Made by a program: the position numbers and the translations under genes
In this document: piece by piece, positions 1,446-47,935 of the stretch
Layout of the letters: each line of letters starts with the position of its first letter
Numbering within the stretch: position 1 is the stretch's first letter
NCBI GenBank assembly: GCA_965207065.1
Contig: OZ242260.1
Coordinates: forward strand, 2,810,017 to 2,874,016
Direction of reading: 5' to 3'
Length of the DNA: 64,000 bases
Source: a bacterium
Lineage (GTDB): Bacteria; UBA8248
Notes under the pieces: generated by a model
What the model saw: the letters and a program-made list of their open reading frames with translations, nothing else
The model's database searches: none
Told to the model about the DNA's origin: nothing

Positions 1446-2249
1446 TTGCGGATGATTTCTCTGGAACGCCACGAATCCGGCAGCGTTGAATTTCTCAGCT
1501 CACCCTTGCTGGATGAACCCGGTTTCTTGCGTCATGGGTTCAGCACCCGGAGGGGAGGGGTGAGCGAAGGCCGGTTCCGTTCCTTGAACCTCGGCCGCGC
1601 CAGGGGTGAAGATCCCGAAAACGTAGCGGAGAACAGAAGGCGCTTTTTTGAAGCCGCCGATTTTCCGGCGCGACGCCTGGTGGAAGCGAAACAGGTGCAC
1701 GGGTGCGACGTTCTCGTGGCGGAGCAAACATCTCCCGGTGAAAGAACGTGCGGAGACGCCCTGATCACGAACGCTTCGGGTTTGGGGCTGGCGGTCCAGA
1801 CGGCGGATTGCATTCCCGTGCTCATCGCAGACGCGCGGAAGGTGGCCGTCGCAGCCGTGCATGCGGGACGCAAGGGAGTTGCCGGCGGCGTTTTGTCCGC
1901 GACCATCGAGCGGATGCGGGAGGAATACGGCTGCGATCCCAGGGATATGCGGGCCGCTTTGGGCCCCGCCATTTCCGGGGAACGCTACGAGGTGGGCGAG
2001 GAGTGCCTGCCGCCTTTTCGCGAACGGCACCCAAACTGGAGGGATTTCGCCACGCCCCTGGGGAGGGGCAAGTGGCTGCTGGACCTCCCCCTGGCGGCGA
2101 GGCTTCAGTTGGCCTCTGCAGGGATTCCCGAAAGCCGGATTGGTGCGCCGGGGCCTTGCACGTTTTCTGAATCATCAAAGTTTTTCTCCTACCGCCGCGA
2201 CGGGCCTCAGACGGGGCGACTGCTGTCGGCCGTCTGGATAGGAGGGTGA
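1446..2249 (+). CDS. pgeF: YfiH/PgeF family (DUF152 laccase-domain) protein
   Basis: Protein length and composition typical of the YlmD/YfiH family; position directly downstream of ftsZ as in conserved ylm clusters; TTG start in track. Confidence 0.75.
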   Translation: MRMISLERHESGSVEFLSSPLLDEPGFLRHGFSTRRGGVSEGRFRSLNLGRARGEDPENVAENRRRFFEAADFPARRLVEAKQVHGCDVLVAEQTSPGERTCGDALITNASGLGLAVQTADCIPVLIADARKVAVAAVHAGRKGVAGGVLSATIERMREEYGCDPRDMRAALGPAISGERYEVGEECLPPFRERHPNWRDFATPLGRGKWLLDLPLAARLQLASAGIPESRIGAPGPCTFSESSKFFSYRRDGPQTGRLLSAVWIGG

Positions 2250-2962
2250 GGAATACGGTGAGTGAAGTTGGGCAGCGATACGAGATGGTGAAGGAGCGTG
2301 TGGCGGATGCGGCACTCGCCTCTGGCCGGAACCCGGATGAAATTCGCCTTCTGGCCGTGAGCAAGACCCAGCCGCCCGAGCGCGTCGTCGAAGCGATCGA
2401 TGCGGGCGTCGACATCATCGGGGAGAACCGGGTGCAGGAAGCCCAGCGCAAAAGGGGTGAAATCGACCCCGGGGTCGCGGGCAGGGCGAGGTGGCATCTC
2501 ATCGGCGGCCTGCAAAGGAACAAGGCCCGCACCGTGCCCGGACTGTTCGACGTGGTGGAATCGGTAGATTCCCTCGCCCTGGCGCGCGAGTTGAACAAGC
2601 GCGTGGGTGTCGCGGGAGAAGACCCCCTGGACGTGTTCATACAGGTGAACACGGGGGCGGAAACCCAGAAGGGAGGGGTCGCCCCGGCGGATGCGATAGC
2701 GCTCGTGCGCGATGTTTCCGCGCTGGAAGCCTTGCGGGTGGTCGGCTTGATGTGTATTCCTCCCCTGGGGCGGGAGGCGGAGGAGAGCCGACCCCATTTC
2801 GAGTTGTTGAGAAAATTGAGGGATGAGGCCCGGGACGGAGGGTTTTCTCACGTCCGGGAGTTGTCGATGGGCATGTCGAACGACTTCGAAGTCGCGATAG
2901 CCGAGGGAGCGACGCTCGTCCGCATCGGCACGGCCATTTTCGGGCCGAGAGGAGAGAACTGA
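2246..2962 (+). CDS. yggS: YggS-family pyridoxal-phosphate homeostasis protein
   Basis: Alanine-racemase-N-like fold sequence (LLAVSKTQP, ENRVQE, RWHLIGGLQRNK); overlaps stop of upstream gene. Confidence 0.8.
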   Translation: MRNTVSEVGQRYEMVKERVADAALASGRNPDEIRLLAVSKTQPPERVVEAIDAGVDIIGENRVQEAQRKRGEIDPGVAGRARWHLIGGLQRNKARTVPGLFDVVESVDSLALARELNKRVGVAGEDPLDVFIQVNTGAETQKGGVAPADAIALVRDVSALEALRVVGLMCIPPLGREAEESRPHFELLRKLRDEARDGGFSHVRELSMGMSNDFEVAIAEGATLVRIGTAIFGPRGEN

Positions 2963-3055
2963 AGCGAATTTGAATCAGGCCAATCATTTCAGTAGGATGG
3001 GCTGGTTCCGGCGTTCGGGGCGATTTCGAACCTATATGCGAAAGGTATTTGGAAT

Positions 3056-3862
3056 ATGTCGGAAATCCTTGTAGTCGGTGGCGGCAACATGGGCGAAGCG
3101 CTCGTCATGGGGATGGTGAATTCCGCCTATGCGAAAGTCGACGACATCGTCATCGCGGAGCCCCTGGCGGAGCGCGCCGAACATCTCCGGCAAGCTTCGG
3201 GATTTGCCGTGGTGTCCGATGGGGCCGAAGCGGCTCCCGAGGCGGAAAAAGTGGTGATCGCAGTGAAGCCGCAGGTGCTCGACGCTGTTCTGGGTGGGCT
3301 GAGGGACGCTCTCGCGCACCGACCGCTCCTGATTTCAGTCGTCGCGGGCGCGTCCACGAGCCGGTTCACGGGAATTCTGGGCGATGAGGCGCGCATCGTC
3401 CGCGTCATGCCGAACACGCCCGCCCTCGTGGGAGAAGGCGCCGCGGGGCTATGCGCCGGCGGAGGGGCGTCGGAAGCGGATTTATCGCAAGCGAAGCAGC
3501 TTCTGGAGTCCGTCGGCAAGGCAGTGGTCTTGCCTGAATCGCTGATGGATGCCGTGACTGGCTTGTCGGGCAGCGGTCCCGCGTATGTCTTCCAATTCAT
3601 CGAGGCGCTGGCGGACGGCGGGGTGAGGGCGGGCCTGCCCCGTGAGGAGGCGATGCTGCTGGCGACCCAGACCGTTTTGGGCTCCGCGCGGATGCTTCTC
3701 GAAACGGGAGAGCATCCGGGCCGCCTGAAGGACATGGTGGCCTCGCCCGGGGGAACGACCATCGCCGGCTTGCATGCGCTCGAAAACGGGGGACTGCGCT
3801 CCGCCGTCATCAACGCCGTCAGCGCCGCCGCGCGCAGAAGCGAGGAACTGGGCCGTGGCTAG
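3056..3862 (+). CDS. proC: pyrroline-5-carboxylate reductase
   Basis: N-terminal Rossmann motif VVGGGNMGEAL and ProC-like C-terminal region (ASPGGTTIAGL). Confidence 0.9.
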   Translation: MSEILVVGGGNMGEALVMGMVNSAYAKVDDIVIAEPLAERAEHLRQASGFAVVSDGAEAAPEAEKVVIAVKPQVLDAVLGGLRDALAHRPLLISVVAGASTSRFTGILGDEARIVRVMPNTPALVGEGAAGLCAGGGASEADLSQAKQLLESVGKAVVLPESLMDAVTGLSGSGPAYVFQFIEALADGGVRAGLPREEAMLLATQTVLGSARMLLETGEHPGRLKDMVASPGGTTIAGLHALENGGLRSAVINAVSAAARRSEELGRG

Positions 3863-3889
3863 TCTGCTTTTCGATATGAGGGTTCGGTC

Positions 3890-4186
3890 GTGTTCTTGAT
3901 ATCGAATTTCATGAACGGAATCGGGGTGATTCTCAGCTATCTGCTGACCATCTACATCTGGATCATCATCATCCGCGCGCTTTTGTCGTGGGTGAACCCG
4001 GATCCCTATAATCCGATTGTTCAGATATTGTATCGCCTGACGGAGCCCGTGCTGGCTCCCGTGCGCTACCGGATGCCCGACATCGGGGGCATCGATGCGA
4101 GTCCGATCGTGGTTTTGTTGATCATATTCTTTTTGCAAAGTTTCCTGGTTCAAAGTATCTTTGACCTGGCAAACATGTTGCGTTGA
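3890..4186 (+). CDS. YggT family membrane protein
   Basis: 98-aa hydrophobic protein with YggT-like motif (IIIRALLSWVNPDPYNP), conserved position after proC. Confidence 0.75.
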   Translation: MFLISNFMNGIGVILSYLLTIYIWIIIIRALLSWVNPDPYNPIVQILYRLTEPVLAPVRYRMPDIGGIDASPIVVLLIIFFLQSFLVQSIFDLANMLR

Positions 4187-4206
4187 TTATCACCTGGGGA
4201 GTGGAG

Positions 4207-4782
4207 ATGAAGTACACGGGCCATGACGTTCGAAGCCATCGTTTTTCGAGCAAGATGCGGGGCTACGATCGGCTCGAAGTCGATGCGTACCTGTTCAAGG
4301 TGGCCGACTGGCTGGATCAGTCGGTGCGGAAAAACGAACAGCTCAGCCTGCAATGCAAGGACCTCTTCGATCAATACAATGGCTTGAGAGAAGAGCACGC
4401 CAATCTGCAGAAAATCCTCATCTCCGTAAACGAACTCAGGGATCAGGCCGCGGCCAAGTCCGGCGAAATGGTGGAAAAAGCGGAAACCGACGCCGAGGAA
4501 CTCATCAATGAGGCCGAAGTCGAGGCGAATAAGATACTCGTGAAAGCCGAACAGGATACCGAAAAACTGCGTGAGGAGATCGCGAGGTTAACGGAACAGA
4601 GGGATAAGATTCTTGCGGATCTGTATGAGACGTTTCTCTCCCAGATTCGAACACTCGAGGTCGAAGGCGTCCGCATGGGGGTCGACCTCGCCCGCCTCCA
4701 TGAGGAAGGCGAAGAGGTTCCTGACGAGAAAAGTGAAAACGTCATCAAGCTGAACCAGAAAGCGGAGGGCGATGCGTCGTGA
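4207..4782 (+). CDS. DivIVA domain protein
   Basis: N-terminal DivIVA motif (F..KMRGYDRLEVDAYL) followed by coiled-coil; start moved to ATG 4207 preceded by ggaga. Confidence 0.75.
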   Translation: MKYTGHDVRSHRFSSKMRGYDRLEVDAYLFKVADWLDQSVRKNEQLSLQCKDLFDQYNGLREEHANLQKILISVNELRDQAAAKSGEMVEKAETDAEELINEAEVEANKILVKAEQDTEKLREEIARLTEQRDKILADLYETFLSQIRTLEVEGVRMGVDLARLHEEGEEVPDEKSENVIKLNQKAEGDAS

Positions 4783-5072
4783 TCGGCCTCCGCGAGGAGG
4801 CGGACGGCGTCAGCTTTGAGGTTCGGGTCCAGCCGCGTTCATCCAAAATGGAAATCACCGGAGTCCAGGACGGCGCCCTGCGGGTGCGGCTGACGGCGCC
4901 GCCCGTGGAAGGCGCCGCAAACATACAGTGCATCGAGTTGCTCTCCCGTAAAATGAAGGTTCCAAAACGCTCCATACGAATCGCCTCGGGCGCGAGAGCG
5001 CGCAGAAAGCGCCTGAAGGTCCTGGGACTGGGCATCGAAGAGGTGAGGGATATCCTGAGCGCCATGGCGTAG
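4779..5072 (+). CDS. DUF167 (YggU-like) protein
   Basis: 97-aa ORF with YggU-like sequence (GALRVRLTAPPVEGAAN); start overlaps divIVA stop. Confidence 0.65.
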   Translation: MIGLREEADGVSFEVRVQPRSSKMEITGVQDGALRVRLTAPPVEGAANIQCIELLSRKMKVPKRSIRIASGARARRKRLKVLGLGIEEVRDILSAMA

Positions 5073-5152: not shown

Positions 5153-6202
5153 ATGGCGTTTCGGGACGGCGCTCTCGTTCTTCTCGATCAGCGGAAACTT
5201 CCCCGAGAAGAGGTGTATCTCGAATACCGCACGGAAGACGATGTGGCCGAGGCCATCAAGACCATGGTGGTGCGCGGCGCGCCCGCCATCGGGATAGCGG
5301 CGGCTTATGGCATGGCCCTGGCCGCCGCCCGCCACGCGGGTTCAGGCGGCGATGCGCAGCGCGAGGCGCTCGAGCGGGCGGCCCGGGTGCTGGGCGACAC
5401 GCGCCCCACGGCGGTGAATCTCTTCTGGGCGATAGAAAAAATGATGGCGCACGTCGACCATAGCGACTCGGCGCCCGAAGGGCTGGCCGATGAACTCCTC
5501 CGCCTGGCGAGGGATATGCACGAGGAGGACGCCGCGATTTGCCGCCGGATAGGCGACCTGGGCGCTGAGTTGCTGCAGGAGGGGAGCAGCGTTCTCACCC
5601 ATTGCAACGCCGGCGCGCTTGCGACCGCAGGCTACGGCACGGCGGGCGGCGTGATTCGCAGCGGCTTTCGGGACGGACGGGTGCGGGAGGTTTTCGTGGA
5701 CGAGACCAGACCCTTCCTGCAGGGAGCGCGCCTCACCGCCTGGGAGTTGAGCCGCGACGGCATCCCCGTCGTGCTCATCACCGACAACATGGCCGCGCAT
5801 TGCATGAGCCTGGGAAGGATAGACGCGATTGTGGTAGGTGCGGACCGCGTGGCCGCGAACGGGGACGTCGCCAATAAAATCGGCACGTATGGCCTCGCGG
5901 TGCTCGCGAGAGAACACGGGGTGCCCTTTTACGTGGCGGCGCCGACGAGCACCGTCGACATGGAGGCGAAAAGCGGCGCGGACATTCCCATCGAAGAACG
6001 CCCCGAGGAGGAGGTTCGCTCCTTCGGCGGCCGGCCCGTCGCGCCGGAGGGGGTAAGCGTCTTCAACCCCGCTTTCGACGTGACGCCCGCGCGTTTCGTG
6101 GACGCCCTGGTGACGGAGCGGGGGGTAGTGCGCCTCGCGGAAGGGGAGTCTCTCGGCCTATACTACAAGATGTCAGGTTTGCCGTTTCAAAGCGAGATGT
6201 AG
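5153..6202 (+). CDS. mtnA: S-methyl-5-thioribose-1-phosphate isomerase (eIF-2B alpha/beta/delta family)
   Basis: MtnA-like sequence (LLDQRKLP, MVVRGAPAIGIAAAYG, ANKIGTYGLAVLA); start set to in-frame ATG 5153 after gaggga. Confidence 0.85.
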   Translation: MAFRDGALVLLDQRKLPREEVYLEYRTEDDVAEAIKTMVVRGAPAIGIAAAYGMALAAARHAGSGGDAQREALERAARVLGDTRPTAVNLFWAIEKMMAHVDHSDSAPEGLADELLRLARDMHEEDAAICRRIGDLGAELLQEGSSVLTHCNAGALATAGYGTAGGVIRSGFRDGRVREVFVDETRPFLQGARLTAWELSRDGIPVVLITDNMAAHCMSLGRIDAIVVGADRVAANGDVANKIGTYGLAVLAREHGVPFYVAAPTSTVDMEAKSGADIPIEERPEEEVRSFGGRPVAPEGVSVFNPAFDVTPARFVDALVTERGVVRLAEGESLGLYYKMSGLPFQSEM

Positions 6203-6212
6203 ACTGCTCGTG

Positions 6213-6242
6213 TTGACTTCCGGCACGCGTGCGGGCTATAAA
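6213..6242 (+). promoter_or_regulatory. candidate sigma70-like promoter for tRNA-Asp (TTGACT -35, TATAAA -10, 18-nt spacer)
   Basis: Hexamers read directly about 40 nt upstream of the tRNA 5' end. Confidence 0.3.
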
Positions 6243-6281
6243 CCGACATTCTTCGGGCGGTTTTGAAGAGTTGTTTTCATG

Positions 6282-6359
6282 GGGGCTGTAGCGAAGTTTG
6301 GTTATCGCGCTGGCCTGTCAAGCCAGAGATCGCGGGTTCGAGTCCCGTCAGCCCCGCCA
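6282..6359 (+). tRNA. tRNA-Asp (anticodon GTC)
   Basis: Manual cloverleaf: acceptor GGGGCTG/CAGCCCC, D-stem GCGA/TCGC, anticodon stem CTGGC/GCCAG with loop CTGTCAA, T-arm GCGGG-TTCGAGT-CCCGT, encoded CCA. Confidence 0.9.
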
Positions 6360-6672
6360 CTTTCAACTCCGCTCAGAATCTTCGCCTTTAAAGAGTATAC
6401 AGGCGAATATGCCGCTCATTCTCATGCCGACGTCAGAATTCGGGCGAGCTTTGGTCTTCGGCGGGGTGTTGGTGTATAGTAAATTTTAATGTATTCAATT
6501 TATTTTATTTATAGATTAAATTTCGCTTTCCTACATCATGAGCGAATCATTCATGATTTACCGGCGTATGGTTTGATCGGTGTCGATGGTATGTCGACGC
6601 TGTAAGACTTTGCGTCTTTTTACAACTCCTTGGGCCGTCTCAAGGAAGTCTTCTATTTCGAGGAGAAACGGA

Positions 6673-7662
6673 ATGAAAAGATTTGTTGGTTTCGCACTGG
6701 CCGCCGCGTTCGTAGTGGGTACGTTCGTGGTGGTCGCACCGGCCGAATCGGCGACGCTGCGAATCGGCGCGCACCGCTCCATGTGGGGTTCTTTCGAGAT
6801 TATCGCCGACCGCATGGGCTACTGGAAGAAAGAGGGCCTCAAATACACAATCGGCCACTTCAAGCAGGGCAAACTGATGCGCAACGCCATCATCCAGGAC
6901 AACCTGGATACCGGCACCACGGGTTTCTCGCCCTTCACCACGGCGATCTCCAAGGGCGCGCGGATCATGGGCATCGGCGTGACGGCGAACATGTGTGAAG
7001 CCATCAACATCATCGTGCCCGTGAAGTCGAAGGCGAAGAGCCTCAATGATCTCAAGGGCTCGGTGTTCGCCAACAAGAAGGGCACGAGCACGGACTTCTC
7101 CTTCCAGGCCTTCGTCCTTCCCGCGTATGGCCTGAAAAGCTCCGATTTCCCGCTTCTGAGCGTCCGCGCCACCGAGCGCATCGCCGCGCTGATATCCGGC
7201 GCCGCCAAGGCGGCCATGGTCGGCGAGCCGCAGGGTGAAATCGCCCGCGAGGCCGGCTACGTCCGCTATCTTGAGGACCTCTGCAAGTACGACAACCCGA
7301 GCATGATGCACGTGGGCAACCCCCAGACCATGAAAAAACACCCCGACCTTTACTACAAATACTTCCGGGGTTGGCTGAAGGCCCACCAGTTGGTGAAGAA
7401 CGACCCCGAGAAGTACGCCAAGGTCTATACCAAAGCGTTGCAGGAAGTCGGCGACAAGGCCAAGGAGAGCACCACGCTCAAGGTCATCAAGAAGCTGAAG
7501 TCCGAATTGTACCTGAGCGATCGCGTGAGGAGCTACCTGAACAAGATGGGTGACAAGCAGAAGGAATTCGGCTGGATCAAGAGCCGCCCAGACTTCAGAA
7601 AGAGCCCGTGGCTGAATGACTCCATCCTCCGCAAGGCCGCGAAGGACATCGGCTTCAACTAG
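6673..7662 (+). CDS. ABC transporter substrate-binding protein (nitrate/sulfonate/taurine NitT/TauT-like)
   Basis: Signal peptide (MKRFVGFALAAAFVVGTFVVVAPAES) then SsuA/NMT1-like periplasmic binding fold; start set to ATG 6673 with aggaga RBS. Confidence 0.8.
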   Translation: MKRFVGFALAAAFVVGTFVVVAPAESATLRIGAHRSMWGSFEIIADRMGYWKKEGLKYTIGHFKQGKLMRNAIIQDNLDTGTTGFSPFTTAISKGARIMGIGVTANMCEAINIIVPVKSKAKSLNDLKGSVFANKKGTSTDFSFQAFVLPAYGLKSSDFPLLSVRATERIAALISGAAKAAMVGEPQGEIAREAGYVRYLEDLCKYDNPSMMHVGNPQTMKKHPDLYYKYFRGWLKAHQLVKNDPEKYAKVYTKALQEVGDKAKESTTLKVIKKLKSELYLSDRVRSYLNKMGDKQKEFGWIKSRPDFRKSPWLNDSILRKAAKDIGFN

Positions 7663-8232: not shown

Positions 8233-9159
8233 TTACACTTTTTTGTCCTGCGCGCCCATCGCCTCCATCATACCCCAGCGGATGACGGTGCGGCTCTCGA
8301 TGGGCTGGAAGAGCGCCTTCTCGAGAATGAAGCCGAAAAGCCCAAGTACGGAAAGAGCAACCATCATGAACGCGATGTCGAGGTATTCCTGCGCGTCGAA
8401 AATGCCGGCGGAAAGTCCCCAGCGGATGCCCGCGAACGCCTCCGCCCCCACGCCGGCGCGCCAGGCGCGCGCCAATCCGATGCGCAGACCGCTCAGAATC
8501 ATCGGGAGCGAGCCGGGCAGGACGACGGTGCGGAAAATCGTCATCTTGTCCGCGTTCATCGACTGGGCCGCGCGTATCCATACCGGGTTCACGGTTTTCA
8601 CCCCCGTCCAGACCGCCATGGCGATGGGCAGGAACGAGGCGAAGGCCGTGATGACGATGACCGTCTGATCTCCGATGCCCGACCAGATGACGACGATGGG
8701 TGTCCACGCGATGGCCGGAATCGGCAGCAACACGGAGAGAAGCGGCACGAAGAACGATTCCCAGAAAGCGAAGCGTCCCATCAAGATTCCCACGATGGTG
8801 CCCACGATGGCGGCGATAAAGAACGAGAACGGAAGGCGCCACGCGGTGTTGAGCGTATGGAGCAGAATCGGGCTCTCAAAAAGTTTCCAGATCTGATCCA
8901 TGATTCCCAGGTTCGGGTTCTCGGCCAATGCACGGAACAGGGGATCGGTGACGAGTTCCCATGCCCTGAAGACAATCGCGTCCACGGTGGGGAAGAGCCT
9001 GCCCTGGTTGCCCTGGGCCTGCATGGCGGCGACTTGCCAGATGGCGAGGATGACGATGAACGGGTAGATCGGCCTGAGCTTCACCCAAATGGGCGACCTC
9101 ACCTCTTTTTTCTTCTCGTCCAACGATGGAGGAACAGGCGTTGCCTCGGTTGTCTGCAT
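8233..9159 (-). CDS. ABC transporter permease (NitT/TauT family)
   Basis: Multi-TM protein with the binding-protein-dependent permease fold typical of SsuC/TauC. Confidence 0.85.
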   Translation of the reverse strand: MQTTEATPVPPSLDEKKKEVRSPIWVKLRPIYPFIVILAIWQVAAMQAQGNQGRLFPTVDAIVFRAWELVTDPLFRALAENPNLGIMDQIWKLFESPILLHTLNTAWRLPFSFFIAAIVGTIVGILMGRFAFWESFFVPLLSVLLPIPAIAWTPIVVIWSGIGDQTVIVITAFASFLPIAMAVWTGVKTVNPVWIRAAQSMNADKMTIFRTVVLPGSLPMILSGLRIGLARAWRAGVGAEAFAGIRWGLSAGIFDAQEYLDIAFMMVALSVLGLFGFILEKALFQPIESRTVIRWGMMEAMGAQDKKV

Positions 9160-43522: not shown

Positions 43523-43598
43523 TGGTGGAGGTGAGGGGATTCGAACCCCTGACCTCGTGGGTGCGATCCACGCGCTCTCCCATCTGAGCTACACCCCC
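43523..43598 (-). tRNA. tRNA-Ala (anticodon CGC)
   Basis: Minus-strand cloverleaf GGGGGTG-TA-GCTC-AGATGGG-AGAGC-G-CGTGG-ATCGCAC-CCACG-AGGTC-AGGGG-TTCGAAT-CCCCT-CACCTCC-A-CCA; G3:U70 Ala identity pair present. Confidence 0.9.
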
Positions 43599-43654
43599 AC
43601 AAAAGGAACTTGAAGGTAGGCGAAGGAGCTACGGGTGTCAAGTGAAATAGGGAG

Positions 43655-43944
43655 AGCCGATGAAGAACTCCCCCTAGGAGACTTCACCGGCTCTCGACCT
43701 GCCACAGAGTCCGCCCGTTTCCCCCGCAGCAGGGAGTTGCTTTTGACTAAAGTGGGAGCCAAGGACTCAACCCCTGAGGTATATTATCCTTGGCTCCCGA
43801 TCCTGCTGCAGAGTCCGCCCGTTTCCCCCGCAGCAAGAAAATTCACTGAAATTCCATTTTGGTGAGAGTCGGGGGACAACCCTCCAAGGATTTTCCCCCG
43901 ACTCTCGTCCCGTCGCAGAGTCCGCCCGTTTCCCCCACGACGGG
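43655..43944. repeat. tandem array of alternating hairpins: three copies of a conserved 21-nt loop CAGAGTCCGCCCGTTTCCCCC with variable closing stems, interleaved with three long perfect hairpins
   Basis: Cores at 43705-43725, 43809-43829, 43916-43936; stems cctgcca/cagcagg (imperfect), ctgctg/cagca, cccgtcg/cgacggg; intervening hairpins with 8-, 12- and 13-bp stems. Confidence 0.6.
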
Positions 43945-43953
43945 TAAGCTATA

Positions 43954-46900
43954 TCAAGAACATCCACTCGTCGCGCCACAAGTCATACATTTCAGGCACG
44001 TCCCGTTTCGCACTAAGGTGAACAAACCACAATCGCTGCAAGCTTCCCCCTCATACCCTTTCGCGCGGGCTTCTTCGATGCGTGAATCAATTGCGGAGCT
44101 TGCTTCCGTTATGGGTGTCATCGAAGTTTGGGTGGATTCTGTCTCATAATTCAGACTTATCCGGTCGCTGCGCGGTGCGCTTGCATCCGGTCCCGGGAAT
44201 ATGGTTTGAATCTCTTCTTCTTCCTCGGTATCGAATTCCGGAATCTCTTCCTGGGGGCGCCCGATGGTGTCGCTCCTCAAGTCCTCCGACACGACTTGCG
44301 CCAGGTCGTGGCGACCGAGATATGAAACCGCCAGTTCACGGAAGATGTAATCGATGATGGATGTGCTCATCTTGATGTGCGGGTTGCCCGAGACCATACC
44401 CCCCGGCTCGAATCGTGTGAATACGAAGGCATCCACGAATTCATCCAATGGGACGCCGTGTTGGAGCCCCAGCGAAATTGCGATGGCGAAACAATTCATG
44501 AGGCTTCTGAAGGCAGCGCCTTCTTTGTGCATATCTATGAAAATTTCGCCGATGGAGCCGTCCTCGTACTCACCGGTTCTAAGATATACCTTGTGACCGC
44601 CAATGACGGCTTTTTGTGTGTATCCACCGCGGCGGGTAGGCAACTTGCGTCTTCTGGACTGGTAAATGATCCGGCGCACAATCTGCTGGGCTACATGCAC
44701 GGGGGCACTTTGGGTAGCTGGTTCTTCTTCGCCGATATCACTGAAGAGTTCTGCTTCGCTTTGTGCGGAAAGTGGTTGGCTTAGTTTCGAGCCATCGCGG
44801 TAAATCGCTATGGCTTTGGTCATCCGCTGCCACGATTCGTTGTAGATGTCTAAAATATCTTGAATCGTTGATTCCGCGGGCATGTTGATGGTTTTGCTGA
44901 TGGCGCCAGATATGAAAGGCTGCGCCGCCGCCATCATTCGAACATGGGCCATGGGGCTGATGAAACGCTTGCCTTCTCGTCCGCATTTGCTCGCGCAATC
45001 AAAAACGGCTAGATGCTCTTCTTTTAGGTGGGGCGCCCCCTCAAGCGTCATTTTCCCGCAAACGAAATCATTCGCTTCGCTGATTTGTTCTGGAGTGAAA
45101 CCAATGGCTTCGAGCAGATTCAGGTTCCAGTCGGCTATTTGCGCTTCGCTGAGCCCTAATTGCTCAATGCAGAAGTCATCACCGAGGGAATGTTTGTTGA
45201 AGGCGAACTGGATTTCAAACGCCCCTTCGAGAGCAGCTTCCACTTTTTCCAGAGCCTTGCTCGTAAACCCTTTCTCGTGCAAAGACTCTGGATTGATATG
45301 AGGAGCATTCGTGAGGGTCCCCCGCCCTCGGCAGTAGGCGACGATTTCGCGGATCTCTTCATCGTCATAGCCTAGATGCCGCAAGGCAGCGGGAACGGAT
45401 TGGTTGATGATCTTGAAATAACCGCCTCCGGCCAGTTTTTTGAATTTCACCAAAGCAAAATCCGGCTCGATTCCCGTTGTGTCACAATCCATCACCAAAC
45501 CAATTGTGCCTGTCGGCGCGATGACAGTGGCTTGTGCGTTCCGGTAGCCGTTTCGATAGCCGATGGCCAAAGCATCATCCCACGCCTCACGCGCCGCTTG
45601 GAGAAGATAATGGGGGCAGATTTCCGCAGCGATTCCTGCTGGTGCCTTCGAGAGCATTTCGTATTCTGCCTCCGGCACAGAATAAGCTGCGCGGCGGTGG
45701 TTTCTCAGAACCCGCAACATGTGCTCTTGGTTGTCCTGATACCTTGAGAAAGCGCCCATTTCCCCTGCCATCTCGGCGCTGGTGGCATACGAGCAGCCGG
45801 TCATGATGGAGGTGAGAGCGCCGCACCATGCTTCCGCTTCAAGTGAGTCGTAAGGGATGCCAAGAACCATTAACAAGGTGCCCAGATTGGCGTACCCAAG
45901 TCCTAAAGTTCGATACTCGAATGAGCGTTTGGCTATTTCCGGACTGGGGAATTGCGCCATCAGTACTGAAATTTCGAGGACGACTGTCCATAGGCGAATA
46001 ACATGACGATAGTCTTCTATCTGAAAGTGGTTTTTTTCAGTATCCAAGAATTTTATGAGATTCATCGACGCTAGATTGCATGCGGTATCATCCAAGAACA
46101 TGTATTCTGAGCAAGGATTAGAGCCGTTGATGCGACCATCGGCGGTGCACGTGTGCCAGTCGTTGATGGTTGTGTCAAATTGAAGGCCAGGGTCTGCGCA
46201 ACACCACGCTGCATATCCAATCTGATTCCAAAGTTCTTTCGAACTGACGGAGTCCGCGATTTCGCCGTCAGTGCGCCGTATCAGGTTCCAATCCGAGTTT
46301 TTCTCGGTAGCTTCCATAAAATCATCTGAAACGCGGATGGAATTGTTCGAGTTTTGACCGGAAACCGAGATGTAGGCCTCGCCTTCCCAATTTGTATCGA
46401 GCTCTTCGAACTCGATTTCGGTGATGCCTTGACGTGCAAGTTGGAGAGTCCGATGGATATAATTATCCGGAACGCCGGCGAGTCTTGCGGCCCGAATTGC
46501 TTTGGTGAGTGATGGGTTTTTATCCGGCTGGTACAAGTTGCCATTCAAGCTCAGGTTCTTTCCTTCCAGGCAAGCCCCGAGAATGGCGTTCATGTGCCGG
46601 TTGCACATCTTGCTGCCCGAAACCAGGGCGGCCACTTTCTGTTCTTCGTGCACCTTCCAGTTGATGAATTCCTCGATGTCGGGGTGGTCGATGTCGAGCG
46701 TGACCATTTTCGCCGCGCGCCGAGTGGTGCCGCCCGACTTGATCGCGCCCGCGGCGCGATCCCCAATCTTGAGGAAACTCATGAGGCCGGAGCTTCTTCC
46801 ACCTCCTGAGAGAGATTCCCCCTCCGCTCTCAAATTCGAGAAATTCGTGCCGGTGCCCGAGCCGTATTTGAAAATGCGCGCCTCGCGCGTCCATAAATTC

Positions 46901-47550
46901 ATGATCCCGCCCTCGTTGACGAGATCATCTTTCACCGATTGGATGAAGCACGCATGCGGTTGAGGACGCTCATAGGCGTTGGTGGAGCGGAGTATTTCCC
47001 CGCTTTCGGGATCGCAATAAAAATGTCCCTGGGCGGGGCGCGTGATGCCGTAGGCCCAGTGCAGGCCCGTATTGAACCACTGTGGCGAGTTGGGGGCCGC
47101 CATCTGGCTCGCTAGTATGTATAAAAGCTCCTCATAGAACGCTTTGGCGTCTTTTTCCGCGTGAAAATAACCGTGTTTCCAGCCCCAATAGGTCCAGCAT
47201 CCCGCCAGGCGATGGAAAACGTCCCGGGCGTCGCGCTCGCTTCCGAATCGCTCATCCTCGGGCAGGGACTCAAGTTTTTCCGTGTCCGGCTCCGAGCGCT
47301 GCAGCCATTCGGGCACTCCCTCTTCGGAAACTTTGTTTAAATGTGTGGGGACGCCGGCTTTTCGGAAGTATTTTTGCGCTAGAATGTCGACGGCCACCTG
47401 AGACCAGCTCTCAGGCGCCATGATGTCCTTCGCTTCGAAGACGACCGAGCCGTCCGGGTTGGTGATGCGCGAGGTGCGCGGCGTGAAACCGACCTCGCCG
47501 TACGCGTCATCTCCGGCCCGGGTGAATCGCCTCGTAAACTCCACGCCCAT
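43954..47550 (-). CDS. nrdJ: adenosylcobalamin-dependent ribonucleotide reductase (class II)
   Basis: 1198 aa; class II RNR layout with Cys-rich C-terminal tail ([22 protein letters not shown]); ggagga RBS before ATG. Confidence 0.9.
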
Positions 47551-47614
47551 TCTCCTCCGCTAGGAACGCCCCGCTATGCCGGGGTCATATTTAGTATGGC
47601 GAAATCAAGCGGCA

Positions 47615-47716
47615 ACACTAAATGTAGTATGCTTTGCCCCCGTCTGTCAATACCCTGAAAACGGATATACACAAAATATATGCGATTACCCACACCTTAT
47701 CCCCAAATATTGTGTT
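47615..47716 (-). promoter_or_regulatory. candidate NrdR boxes upstream of nrdJ
   Basis: Coding-strand 16-mers cgcatatattttgtgt and (c)aacacaatatttgggg spaced 32 bp centre to centre, plus atactacatttagtgt; resemble consensus acaCwAtATaTwGtgt. Confidence 0.4.
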
Positions 47717-47935
47717 TTCCTGTGGAAAACCGGCGCAAACAGGAAAACAAGGGCTGAAAACCGCTTCGCCGCCCCACGCAGCCTCGATTTCCGGAGCCTC
47801 GGCGCGCCTTGAATCGGGGGCGCAGGAGCGCGTGAACTCAAAGAGCGTGGCCGCCGGCCGGCGCGCTTTTGCCGCGCAGAACAAGCACCGGAAACGCCCG
47901 CAAACATGCTCCGGATGCGCCCGGAAGAGCGTCTG

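Follow-up and report, generated by a model that had tools for sequence, protein, structure and literature searches.

Tandem hairpins that present the same loop on stems of differing sequence are known from the 3' untranslated region (3' UTR) of the transferrin-receptor mRNA, where five iron-responsive elements (IREs) are bound by IRP1/2. Here we describe an array of similar architecture in a 64,000-nt stretch of a bacterial contig (OZ242260.1, positions 2,810,017 to 2,874,016, assembly GCA_965207065.1), referred to below as the window. The array lies immediately downstream of nrdJ, a gene for ribonucleotide reductase: a structured RNA element specific to Nitrospinota forms the 3' UTR of the nrdJ mRNA and consists of one to four tandem modules with two hairpins (A and B) in each. 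As in the IREs, the tandem 3' UTR hairpins carry invariant loops while the stems vary but stay paired, and in both cases the number of copies points to multivalent binding as a determinant of mRNA stability. The likeness is an architectural analogy only. The IREs are eukaryotic, have a 6-nt CAGUGN loop with a bulged C, and show no sequence relation to the array, whereas the nrdJ array has a 12-nt loop and a second, obligatory hairpin in every module.

Among bacterial systems, the CsrB/RsmY/RsmZ sponges also repeat hairpins with the same loop motif in a variable number of copies. The GGA of these loops is found in the invariant loop of hairpin A (within GCGGAC) and in about half of the hairpin B apices (CCU-NGG-AGG). 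However, the sponges are independent small RNA (sRNA) genes with many short GGA loops, whereas the array has a 14-mer motif in an mRNA 3' UTR and a B apex split about evenly between GGA (NGG-A) and GGG (NGG-G). The sRNAs derived from 3' UTRs (CpxQ, DapZ) and the sibling sRNAs (LhrC1-4, PrrF1/2) have in common with the array a site in a 3' UTR, a host terminator, a short contiguous conserved stretch and tandem copies. On the other hand, each of the known tandem siblings has its own promoter and terminator, while the internal modules of the array have neither; compared to the sibling sRNAs, the candidate seed of the array is G-rich, partly base-paired and invariant across the phylum.

GC-rich imperfect palindromes that follow stop codons and can stabilise the upstream mRNA are present in repetitive extragenic palindromic (REP) sequences, bacterial interspersed mosaic elements (BIMEs), Correia/NEMIS, BOX and RUP. 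Members of these families are scattered through a genome in tens to hundreds of copies and have no orthologues in distant species, whereas the array occupies a single locus whose position is conserved across the phylum. Intrinsic terminators explain only one of the six hairpins in the window, as hairpins A and the internal hairpins B have no U-tracts and carry invariant loops. RNase P cleaves upstream of mascRNA in MALAT1 and of phage P1/P7 C4 RNA; such minihelix substrates (mascRNA/MALAT1, phage P1 C4 RNA, pre-4.5S RNA) share with the array a 12-bp helix starting with a G-C pair and followed by ACCA inside a longer transcript. The array differs from them in having no T-loop or cloverleaf, and CCA is missing from many middle modules. 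Finally, the ToxI type III antitoxin and the CRISPR repeats are also tandem structured RNA repeats, which are processed and protein-bound. Their units measure ~36 nt compared to 105 nt here, and the array has no adjacent toxin or cas gene and keeps conserved hairpins, in place of variable spacers, between its cores.

The minus strand of the window is the sense strand for nrdJ, for the array and for a tRNA-Ala gene. The original prediction, made from the sequence of this region, had placed a repeat array between tRNA-Ala and the nrdJ stop codon, and this layout was borne out: nrdJ (43954-47550 (-)) encodes a class II B12-dependent ribonucleotide reductase of 1198 aa with matches to PF08471, PF02867 and PF12637, and tRNA-Ala(CGC), found by ARAGORN at 43523-43598 (-), has its own promoter and is a syntenic neighbour that lies outside the element. 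The three identical 21-nt cores on which the prediction was based, CAGAGTCCGCCCGTTTCCCCC at 43705-43725, 43809-43829 and 43916-43936 (+), were confirmed as exactly three copies in the window, compared to a chance expectation of 0.02; none of 100 shuffles had three copies, and no further copy was found in the window with up to three mismatches allowed. The core spacing of 104 and 107 nt agrees with the predicted alternation with long hairpins about every 105 bp. A repeat finder stretches the core copies to 34 nt, and the three long inverted repeats (43652-43695, 43754-43798 and 43864-43906) have arms that are 90-100% complementary. The region folds much more stably than shuffled sequence on both strands (z = -6.9 for plus and -7.5 for minus). 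Hairpin A, hairpin B and a spacer together make up the actual repeat unit of ~105 nt; the window has three modules of ~85 nt each. In the direction of nrdJ transcription, the stop codon and 9 nt are followed by A1-B1, a first spacer, A2-B2, a second spacer, A3-B3, the U-rich tail, the TTGACA-N17-TACCTT motif and finally tRNA-Ala.

In module 1, the nearest to nrdJ, hairpin A (43909..43944 (-)) starts 9 nt past the stop codon and has a 12-bp stem with a 12-nt loop (CCCGUCGUGGGG-GAAACGGGCGGA-CUCUGCGACGGG; -19.7 kcal/mol in sense vs -9.8 in antisense). Hairpin B of this module (43864..43906 (-); GAGAGUCGGGGG...CCCCCGACUCUC; -33.0 kcal/mol) has a CCU-UGG-AGG apex and is followed by ACCAAAA, with no U-tract. 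The A/U-rich spacer 1 (43839..43863 (-); ACCAAAAUGGAAUUUCAGUGAAUUU...) differs in length among species, with a pairwise identity of 0.57 and 13-nt indels. Module 2 is made of hairpin A at 43802..43837 (-) (CUUGCUGCGGGG-GAAACGGGCGGA-CUCUGCAGCAGG; -18.7 kcal/mol in sense vs -7.9 in antisense) and hairpin B at 43754..43798 (-) (GGGAGCCAAGGA...UCCUUGGCUCCC; -29.1 kcal/mol); spacer 2 (43734..43753 (-); ACUUUAGUCAAAAGCAACUC) is weakly conserved, with a pairwise identity of 0.61. Hairpin A of module 3 (43698..43733 (-); CCUGCUGCGGGG-GAAACGGGCGGA-CUCUGUGGCAGG) is the copy that had been described as degenerate. The description is right for the plus strand only; on the minus strand two extra G.U pairs close and complete the stem (CCUGCUGC...GUGGCAGG; -18.1 kcal/mol in sense vs -4.4 in antisense). 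Hairpin B of module 3 (43652..43695 (-); GAGAGCCGGUGAAG...CUUCAUCGGCUCUC; -31.0 kcal/mol) is the stem of the nrdJ intrinsic terminator and is followed by a U-rich tail (43642..43651 (-); CCCUAUUUCA, or CCUUUUUC in other species).

Comparison of modules from many genomes (66 distinct ones, 74 in all) showed which parts of the hairpins are held constant. In hairpin A a variable 7-bp outer stem (CCYGNYG/CRNCRGG), which changes with compensation, runs on into a conserved 5-bp inner stem (YGGGG/CUCUG) with G.U pairs, so that the 12-bp stem encloses the 12-nt loop. The invariant ACGGGCGGACUCYG spans the 3' side of this loop and continues into the inner stem as its 3' strand; at least 97% of the modules keep the run ACGGGCGGACUC.G without change. 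The first 3-4 loop bases, on the other hand, vary (GAAA, GACA, CACA, GUUA, GUAA, AGUA, AAAU). The inner stem is a true helix, since in module 3 of locus L129 (loci of other genomes are given by our labels) it changes compensatorily to GGAG/CUCC. The same module interrupts the G-runs and yet retains the helix, and a G-quadruplex in hairpin A was set aside. The 5' Gs of the inner stem stay G opposite U in 56-64 of the 66 modules, although A would pair better. As a pattern of conservation, the invariant run and the retained GGGG indicate that the sequence or the G.U geometry is likely recognised, beyond helix stability.

Hairpin B starts 2-3 nt after hairpin A. Its lower stem has exactly 12 bp in all modules, is 99.5% paired and begins with G-C in 63 of 66; also retained are the internal loop and the apex, CCU-NGK-RGG. 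The long hairpins had been regarded as unrelated in sequence. We found instead that they are diverged paralogues with a common 12-bp base (GRGRGYCG.../...CGRCYCYC) and the common apex.

The covariation of the stems was assessed on the 66 distinct modules for the 29 base pairs of the two-hairpin structure. The pairs were formed in 97.9% of the alignment cells, compared to 48-54% when the 3' partners were slid by 1-3 columns, and at 22 of the 29 both partners had changed. Column shuffling, repeated 500 times, never reached any of the five measures of pairing and covariation. From a plain MAFFT alignment, RNAalifold predicted hairpin A as in the model and hairpin B for the most part, and 13 of the pairs were compensated. 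This strong covariation supports the earlier proposal of selection on structure as opposed to simple duplication.

The proposal had left a choice between RNA and cruciform DNA, and the two parts fared differently. We counted 234 cells with G.U but only 5 with A.C (134 vs 5 without the two near-invariant G.U pairs), and the sense strand gave the more stable fold for 64 of the 65 A hairpins (mean -19.4 vs -8.9 kcal/mol) and 60 of the 65 B hairpins. The wobble asymmetry and the better folding of the sense strand exclude a DNA cruciform as well as an RNA of the plus strand, and RNA on the nrdJ-sense strand was upheld. The loops had been noted as G-rich on that strand, and in every true locus the G-rich strand is indeed the sense strand of nrdJ and tRNA-Ala.

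The degree of constraint was estimated from ten close genomes, with four-fold degenerate sites taken from the last 60 nrdJ codons. The mean pairwise identity was 0.89-0.99 in the hairpins, compared to 0.63 at the four-fold sites and 0.43-0.61 in the spacers, which have indels of up to 13 nt. By these sequence comparisons, the hairpins are under purifying selection. Two open reading frames (ORFs) that overlap the array, 43635-43865 (+) and 43767-43979 (-), were rejected as coding, as the stem changes are compensatory and the indels are not multiples of three. Overall, we hold with high confidence that the array is a transcribed, selected RNA structure that belongs to the nrdJ 3' UTR.

The phyletic distribution of the element was narrow. 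An exact scan with a 19-mer of the core over 185,579 species genomes (one genome per species) produced 23 stretches, of which 21 came from metagenome-assembled genomes labelled Nitrospinota/Nitrospinaceae or "bacterium", and all 21 were the same locus with an unchanged order of genes. The core was confined to this one locus in each of the 21 genomes, including complete chromosomes of 2.9-4.4 Mb, in 1-4 tandem copies. The two remaining matches, in Aeromonas (L005) and Polaromonas (L023), were attributed to chance, with the flanking stems missing. A covariance model built from 46 distinct modules and run over ~270 kb detected array modules only (63-105 bits), followed by antisense matches on the palindromic B hairpins (no more than 37 bits); no other module copy was found in the window or its flanks with the covariance model or with the core at up to three mismatches.

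A search with the NrdJ protein sorted the relatives into three tiers. The first, with 84-94% identity, comprised the loci already found. In the middle tier (73-78%; other Nitrospinota), all five contigs that we fetched (73-77% identity) had 1-4 modules directly after nrdJ. In the lowest tier (no more than 66%; Myxococcota, Planctomycetota and others), none of the four nrdJ genes examined was followed by a module, the best score being 10.9 bits with filters off, and ordinary terminator hairpins were present in place of the array. Thus the search of relatives for the core, which had been proposed along with the original prediction, showed the array to be conserved, always 3' of nrdJ, down to 73% NrdJ identity. 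Two outcomes that the prediction had named as speaking against it, a dispersed REP-like family or miniature inverted-repeat transposable element (MITE) and a lack of conservation in relatives, were both tested and neither occurred.

In all but one of the ~27 Nitrospinota lineages examined, the array begins 6-22 nt past the nrdJ stop codon. In L121, an 83-aa ORF separates nrdJ from the array. The neighbouring tRNA gene is less constant: L128 has one module and no tRNA-Ala, while in L008 an insertion of ~2.7 kb (2150-4820) that contains a tRNA-Ala(GGC) gene separates the array terminator from tRNA-Ala(CGC). Therefore, the element belongs to nrdJ, and the tRNA is a mere syntenic neighbour. A functional link to the tRNA, suggested by a codon-like GCG in the loop or by a possible leader role, was rejected on the same two observations and on the tRNA's own conserved promoter.

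We also scanned metagenomes with the pattern AACGGGCGGAC-N85-115-AACGGGCGGAC. Among the 100 loci obtained, true arrays were present only in L028, L098, L113 and L121, and most of the others were without the element. For example, L065 (900-1900) turned out to be an ankyrin-repeat gene in which AAC GGG CGG ACT CCG encodes NGRTP every 99 nt; there, AAGAACGGGCGGACTCCGCTACAT recurs with this period and encodes the KNGRTPLH segment of the ankyrin repeats. Judging from this one locus that was opened, repeat-protein genes are the likely source of many false matches in the metagenome scan. Two matches were located in viral contigs, and neither had the hairpin architecture.

The ends of the modules carry different signals depending on their place in the array. 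The last hairpin B is followed by a CCUUUUU-like tail, with T at +5 to +7 in 23-24 of 26 terminal units, while internal units have A at these positions. Internal B hairpins end in an ACCAAAA-like tail (ACCA/GCCA/CCCA and then A-rich; e.g. 43860-43863 (-)). In 23 of 25 multi-module arrays the first module is followed by NCCA, as is the only module of L128; among internal modules overall the count is 27 of 47. A consensus scan for terminators made a minus-strand call at 43676..43648, and the definition of an intrinsic terminator fits the last hairpin B (43652-43695) with its tail only. The last hairpin B is the nrdJ terminator. At the internal modules, with NCCAAA ends and no U-tract, the polymerase should read through.

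No promoter-like sites were found inside the array in a consensus scan, and the spacers are unconserved. With no internal promoters, unconstrained spacers and a terminal U-tract, the array is most simply a single transcript with nrdJ, ended by B3. We infer its transcription with nrdJ from its position, the strand asymmetry and the lack of a terminator before the last module. The tRNA-Ala gene, on the other hand, is preceded by its own promoter-like motif, read from the sequence between terminator and tRNA (TTGACA-N17-TACCTT; 43613..43641 (-)). It is conserved as TTGACA-N17-TANNTT in most Nitrospinota lineages, ~8 nt upstream of the tRNA 5' end; the consensus scan missed it, as its -10 hexamer matches at 3 of 6 positions.

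The element did not match any described family. Rfam 15, which had been suggested as a check at the outset, gave only the two tRNAs in the whole window at the gathering threshold; for the 501-nt region at E<=10 it gave the tRNA and spurious microRNA, RNase P and frameshift matches far below threshold. No description of the array element was found in the literature, and the nrdJ mentioned by Axmann et al. 2005 (PMC1242208) belongs to a cyanobacterial locus that is not related to it. A selenocysteine insertion sequence or another recoding signal was rejected: the nrdJ stop codon varies (mostly TGA; TAA in L007 and L128; TAG in L126, L129 and L130), the downstream frames are unconserved, and the spacer indels are not multiples of three. 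The RNA motif is new, although of a known kind, the cis-encoded structured regulatory RNAs of bacterial UTRs. New as well is its architecture of tandem two-hairpin modules in a 3' UTR, with an invariant loop and internal NCCA tails.

Ribonucleotide reductase is, to our knowledge, the sole route to DNA precursors, and the control of its genes that we know of in bacteria is either transcriptional (NrdR) or exerted via 5' riboswitches. The conserved multi-module structure points to an unrecognised post-transcriptional layer of this control. The Nitrospinota are the main nitrite oxidisers of the ocean, and their ribonucleotide reductase relies on scarce vitamin B12. The array is thus a candidate new class of bacterial RNA on an essential gene of an ecologically important phylum, and a well-supported addition to the very short list of bacterial 3' UTR elements with invariant hairpin loops.

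With respect to function, the explanation that we favour, tentatively and by analogy with the systems described above, is a docking site. The invariant loop of hairpin A, probably together with the apex of hairpin B, would be bound by a candidate trans-acting partner, most likely an RNA-binding protein, with several copies bound per transcript. Their occupancy would set the stability or the 3' processing of the nrdJ mRNA; conversely, the more nrdJ is transcribed, the more of the protein the array would titrate. The exposed part of the loop, an invariant 9-nt segment, is continuous with the invariant strand of a G.U-rich helix. A protein partner is favoured because both strands of the inner stem are constrained, the second hairpin is kept in every module, and the invariance is phylum-wide.

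Several points weigh against this account. The invariant stretch is contiguous and 3'-sided, and the 5' side of the loop is variable, a geometry that suits a base-pairing seed too. Each module has a stable 3' hairpin, and the spacers are A/U-rich, as for excised small RNAs. No candidate gene for an RNA-binding protein was found syntenic with the array among the neighbouring genes examined, and protein docking in a 3' UTR is, as far as we know, rare as a mode of regulation in bacteria. Also, the covariation counts come from alignments fitted to the model, and the case for transcription of the array is built on its position, the strand asymmetry and the lack of an earlier terminator.

The geometry of the loop and the spacers leads to a second explanation, which we regard as possible but rather doubtful, namely that the array is a source of sibling sRNAs. 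The nrdJ transcript would be cut in the A/U-rich spacers (by RNase E) or at the A|B junctions to produce 1-4 RNAs of ~85-105 nt, each with the 14-nt seed ACGGGCGGACUCYG in hairpin A and a hairpin B that protects the 3' end. The seed would pair with C-rich target RNAs and so couple other genes to nrdJ expression, with the G.U pairs easing the opening of the inner stem, so that pairing could spread from the loop into the stem. The contiguous invariant stretch on the 3' side of the loop and on the 3' strand, next to a varying 5' side, is as such a seed would have it, and so are the strong 3' hairpin of each module, the unconstrained A/U-rich spacers and the copy number of 1 to 4. No internal promoters or terminators were found, which fits a single precursor, and the modules of single-module lineages (L007) look like a classic seed hairpin with a terminal hairpin. 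The location between stop codon and terminator is that of sRNAs derived from 3' UTRs, as is conservation above that of neutral sites (0.89-0.99 vs 0.63). However, no recurrent complementary target of at least 9 nt was found at a plausible position in ~330 kb of Nitrospinota sequence, whereas a phylum-invariant seed would demand an equally invariant target. Nor did we find a site in the nrdJ 5' leader or in nearby RNA that is complementary to the array. Seed pairing also leaves the near-invariant 5' GGGG of the inner stem unexplained.

The tails of the internal modules allow for a role of RNase P, which we consider improbable. Minimal bacterial RNase P substrates have a helix of ~12 bp, a G-C first pair and a 3' RCCA tail. 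Hairpin B with its ACCA would mimic an acceptor/T-arm minihelix, and a cut by RNase P on its 5' side would free hairpin A to cap and protect the 3' end of the nrdJ mRNA; this could coexist with docking or with the production of sRNAs. The constant 12-bp lower stem of hairpin B with its G-C first pair is as expected from such a substrate, as is the frequent NCCA, most regular after first modules. Still, the middle modules of close relatives end in ACUU/AUUU and have no CCA, there is no T-loop, and neither ARAGORN nor the Rfam tRNA clan recognised the modules. The NCCAAA could be selected otherwise, e.g. as an A-tract that avoids termination, and the invariant loop of hairpin A is not explained. 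If excised RNAs of either sort, tRNA-like or seed-bearing, were real, they would represent a new route to sibling sRNAs from one mRNA.

We give equally little credence to a purely structural 3' end, in which the hairpins would do no more than end the transcript, hold up 3' exonucleases and keep read-through away from the tRNA-Ala promoter, with no trans-acting partner. Each hairpin is indeed highly stable (-18 to -33 kcal/mol), the last one resembles a terminator, and a strong promoter is located directly downstream. But stability needs neither an invariant 14-mer or CGGGCGG loop across 66 modules with covarying stems nor the conserved B apex; the nrdJ genes of other phyla make do with one ordinary terminator, and L128 retains its module with no tRNA next to it.

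Tandem riboswitch-like aptamers that sense a ligand (e.g. adenosylcobalamin or a nucleotide) and control termination at hairpin B are very unlikely. The host gene is B12-dependent, invariant bases are found inside covarying helices, and inspection of the sequences showed that in every module CGGaCUCU of hairpin A could pair with GRGAGYCG, the 5' strand of hairpin B, as an alternative to the two-hairpin fold. This alternative helix (7 bp, bulged) is, however, far weaker than the two-hairpin fold (-55 kcal/mol), and a hairpin loop of 12 nt leaves little room for an aptamer. The array is 3' of nrdJ and not in a 5' leader as riboswitches are; in most lineages it is followed by nothing regulable, the next gene being convergent or a tRNA with a promoter of its own, and no resemblance to an Rfam riboswitch was seen even at E<=10.

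The chance is slighter still that modules excised by RNase P act via the invariant loop on a universally conserved RNA instead of a protein. The loop segment ACGGGCGG (43913-43920, 43806-43813 and 43702-43709 (-)) is what we take to be the first 8 nt of the universal 16S primer 1392R, presumably the complement of 16S rRNA 1399-1406 in the decoding centre. We estimate that an 8-nt match to some part of rRNA would be expected by chance in ~40% of cases, and the other six invariant bases do not extend the pairing with 16S rRNA. If this reading were true, the element would link ribosome function or 30S maturation to the supply of deoxynucleotides.

The least probable alternative, which we practically dismiss, is a genomic repeat with no RNA role (a REP/BIME/MITE-like palindrome, a CRISPR-like array or a DNA cruciform): the units are tandem and palindromic in an intergenic region and resemble REP-type elements as imperfect palindromes after a stop codon, but they are not dispersed (one locus per genome), the "spacers" of the supposed CRISPR array are orthologous hairpins conserved across species with a period of 104-107 nt, the wobble pairs are strongly strand-asymmetric, and there are no transposase genes nearby and no cas domains in neighbouring genes.

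Besides the conserved layout, several loci showed variability of their own. In L003 (reverse strand, 78-269) an exact duplication of the middle module has produced four modules. In L004, L009 and L012 hairpin A of the middle module is lost, the core spacing is 162 nt, and the orphan hairpin B has gained wobble pairs and a mismatch. Recent changes of copy number are thus visible in the sequences of these four loci.

In the GC-rich loci L121 (8218-8469 and ~8903-9150) and L126 (~6400-6630), the array is flanked by ORFs of ~80 aa with the pattern ...QKLFG..F.(T/S)R.(E/D)AD(K/R)(Y/W)... These are located in the gap between nrdJ and the array in L121 and in the gap between the array and tRNA-Ala in both L121 and L126; the L126 copy may be frameshifted. 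The small ORFs had no Pfam match and are missing from most lineages. In the AT-rich L128, the module (6091-6177) extends ~36 nt into the called 3' end of a luciferase-like monooxygenase gene that runs convergently (6141-7205). As this module is followed by ACCA and lacks a U-tract, it may be a site of bidirectional termination, unless the gene has been called too long.

Two further observations concern the neighbours of the array in the window. The upper part of hairpin B2 (UCAGGGGUUGAGUCC; 43769-43777) resembles the T-arm of tRNA-Ala (UCAGGGGUUCGAAUCC; 43544-43552), with a shared 9-mer; the likeness is weaker in other species and may be due to chance or may be a trace of common origin. At the other end of the transcription unit, upstream of nrdJ (47600-47720 (-), e.g. 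47615-47630), the NrdR-box-like palindromes ACACAATATTTGGGG, CGCATATATTTTGTGT and ATACTACATTTAGTGT overlap a TTGACA. A search with the NrdR-box consensus gave a single match in the window, located upstream of nrdJ, compared to 0.07 expected, and on this sequence match nrdJ is probably under NrdR control.

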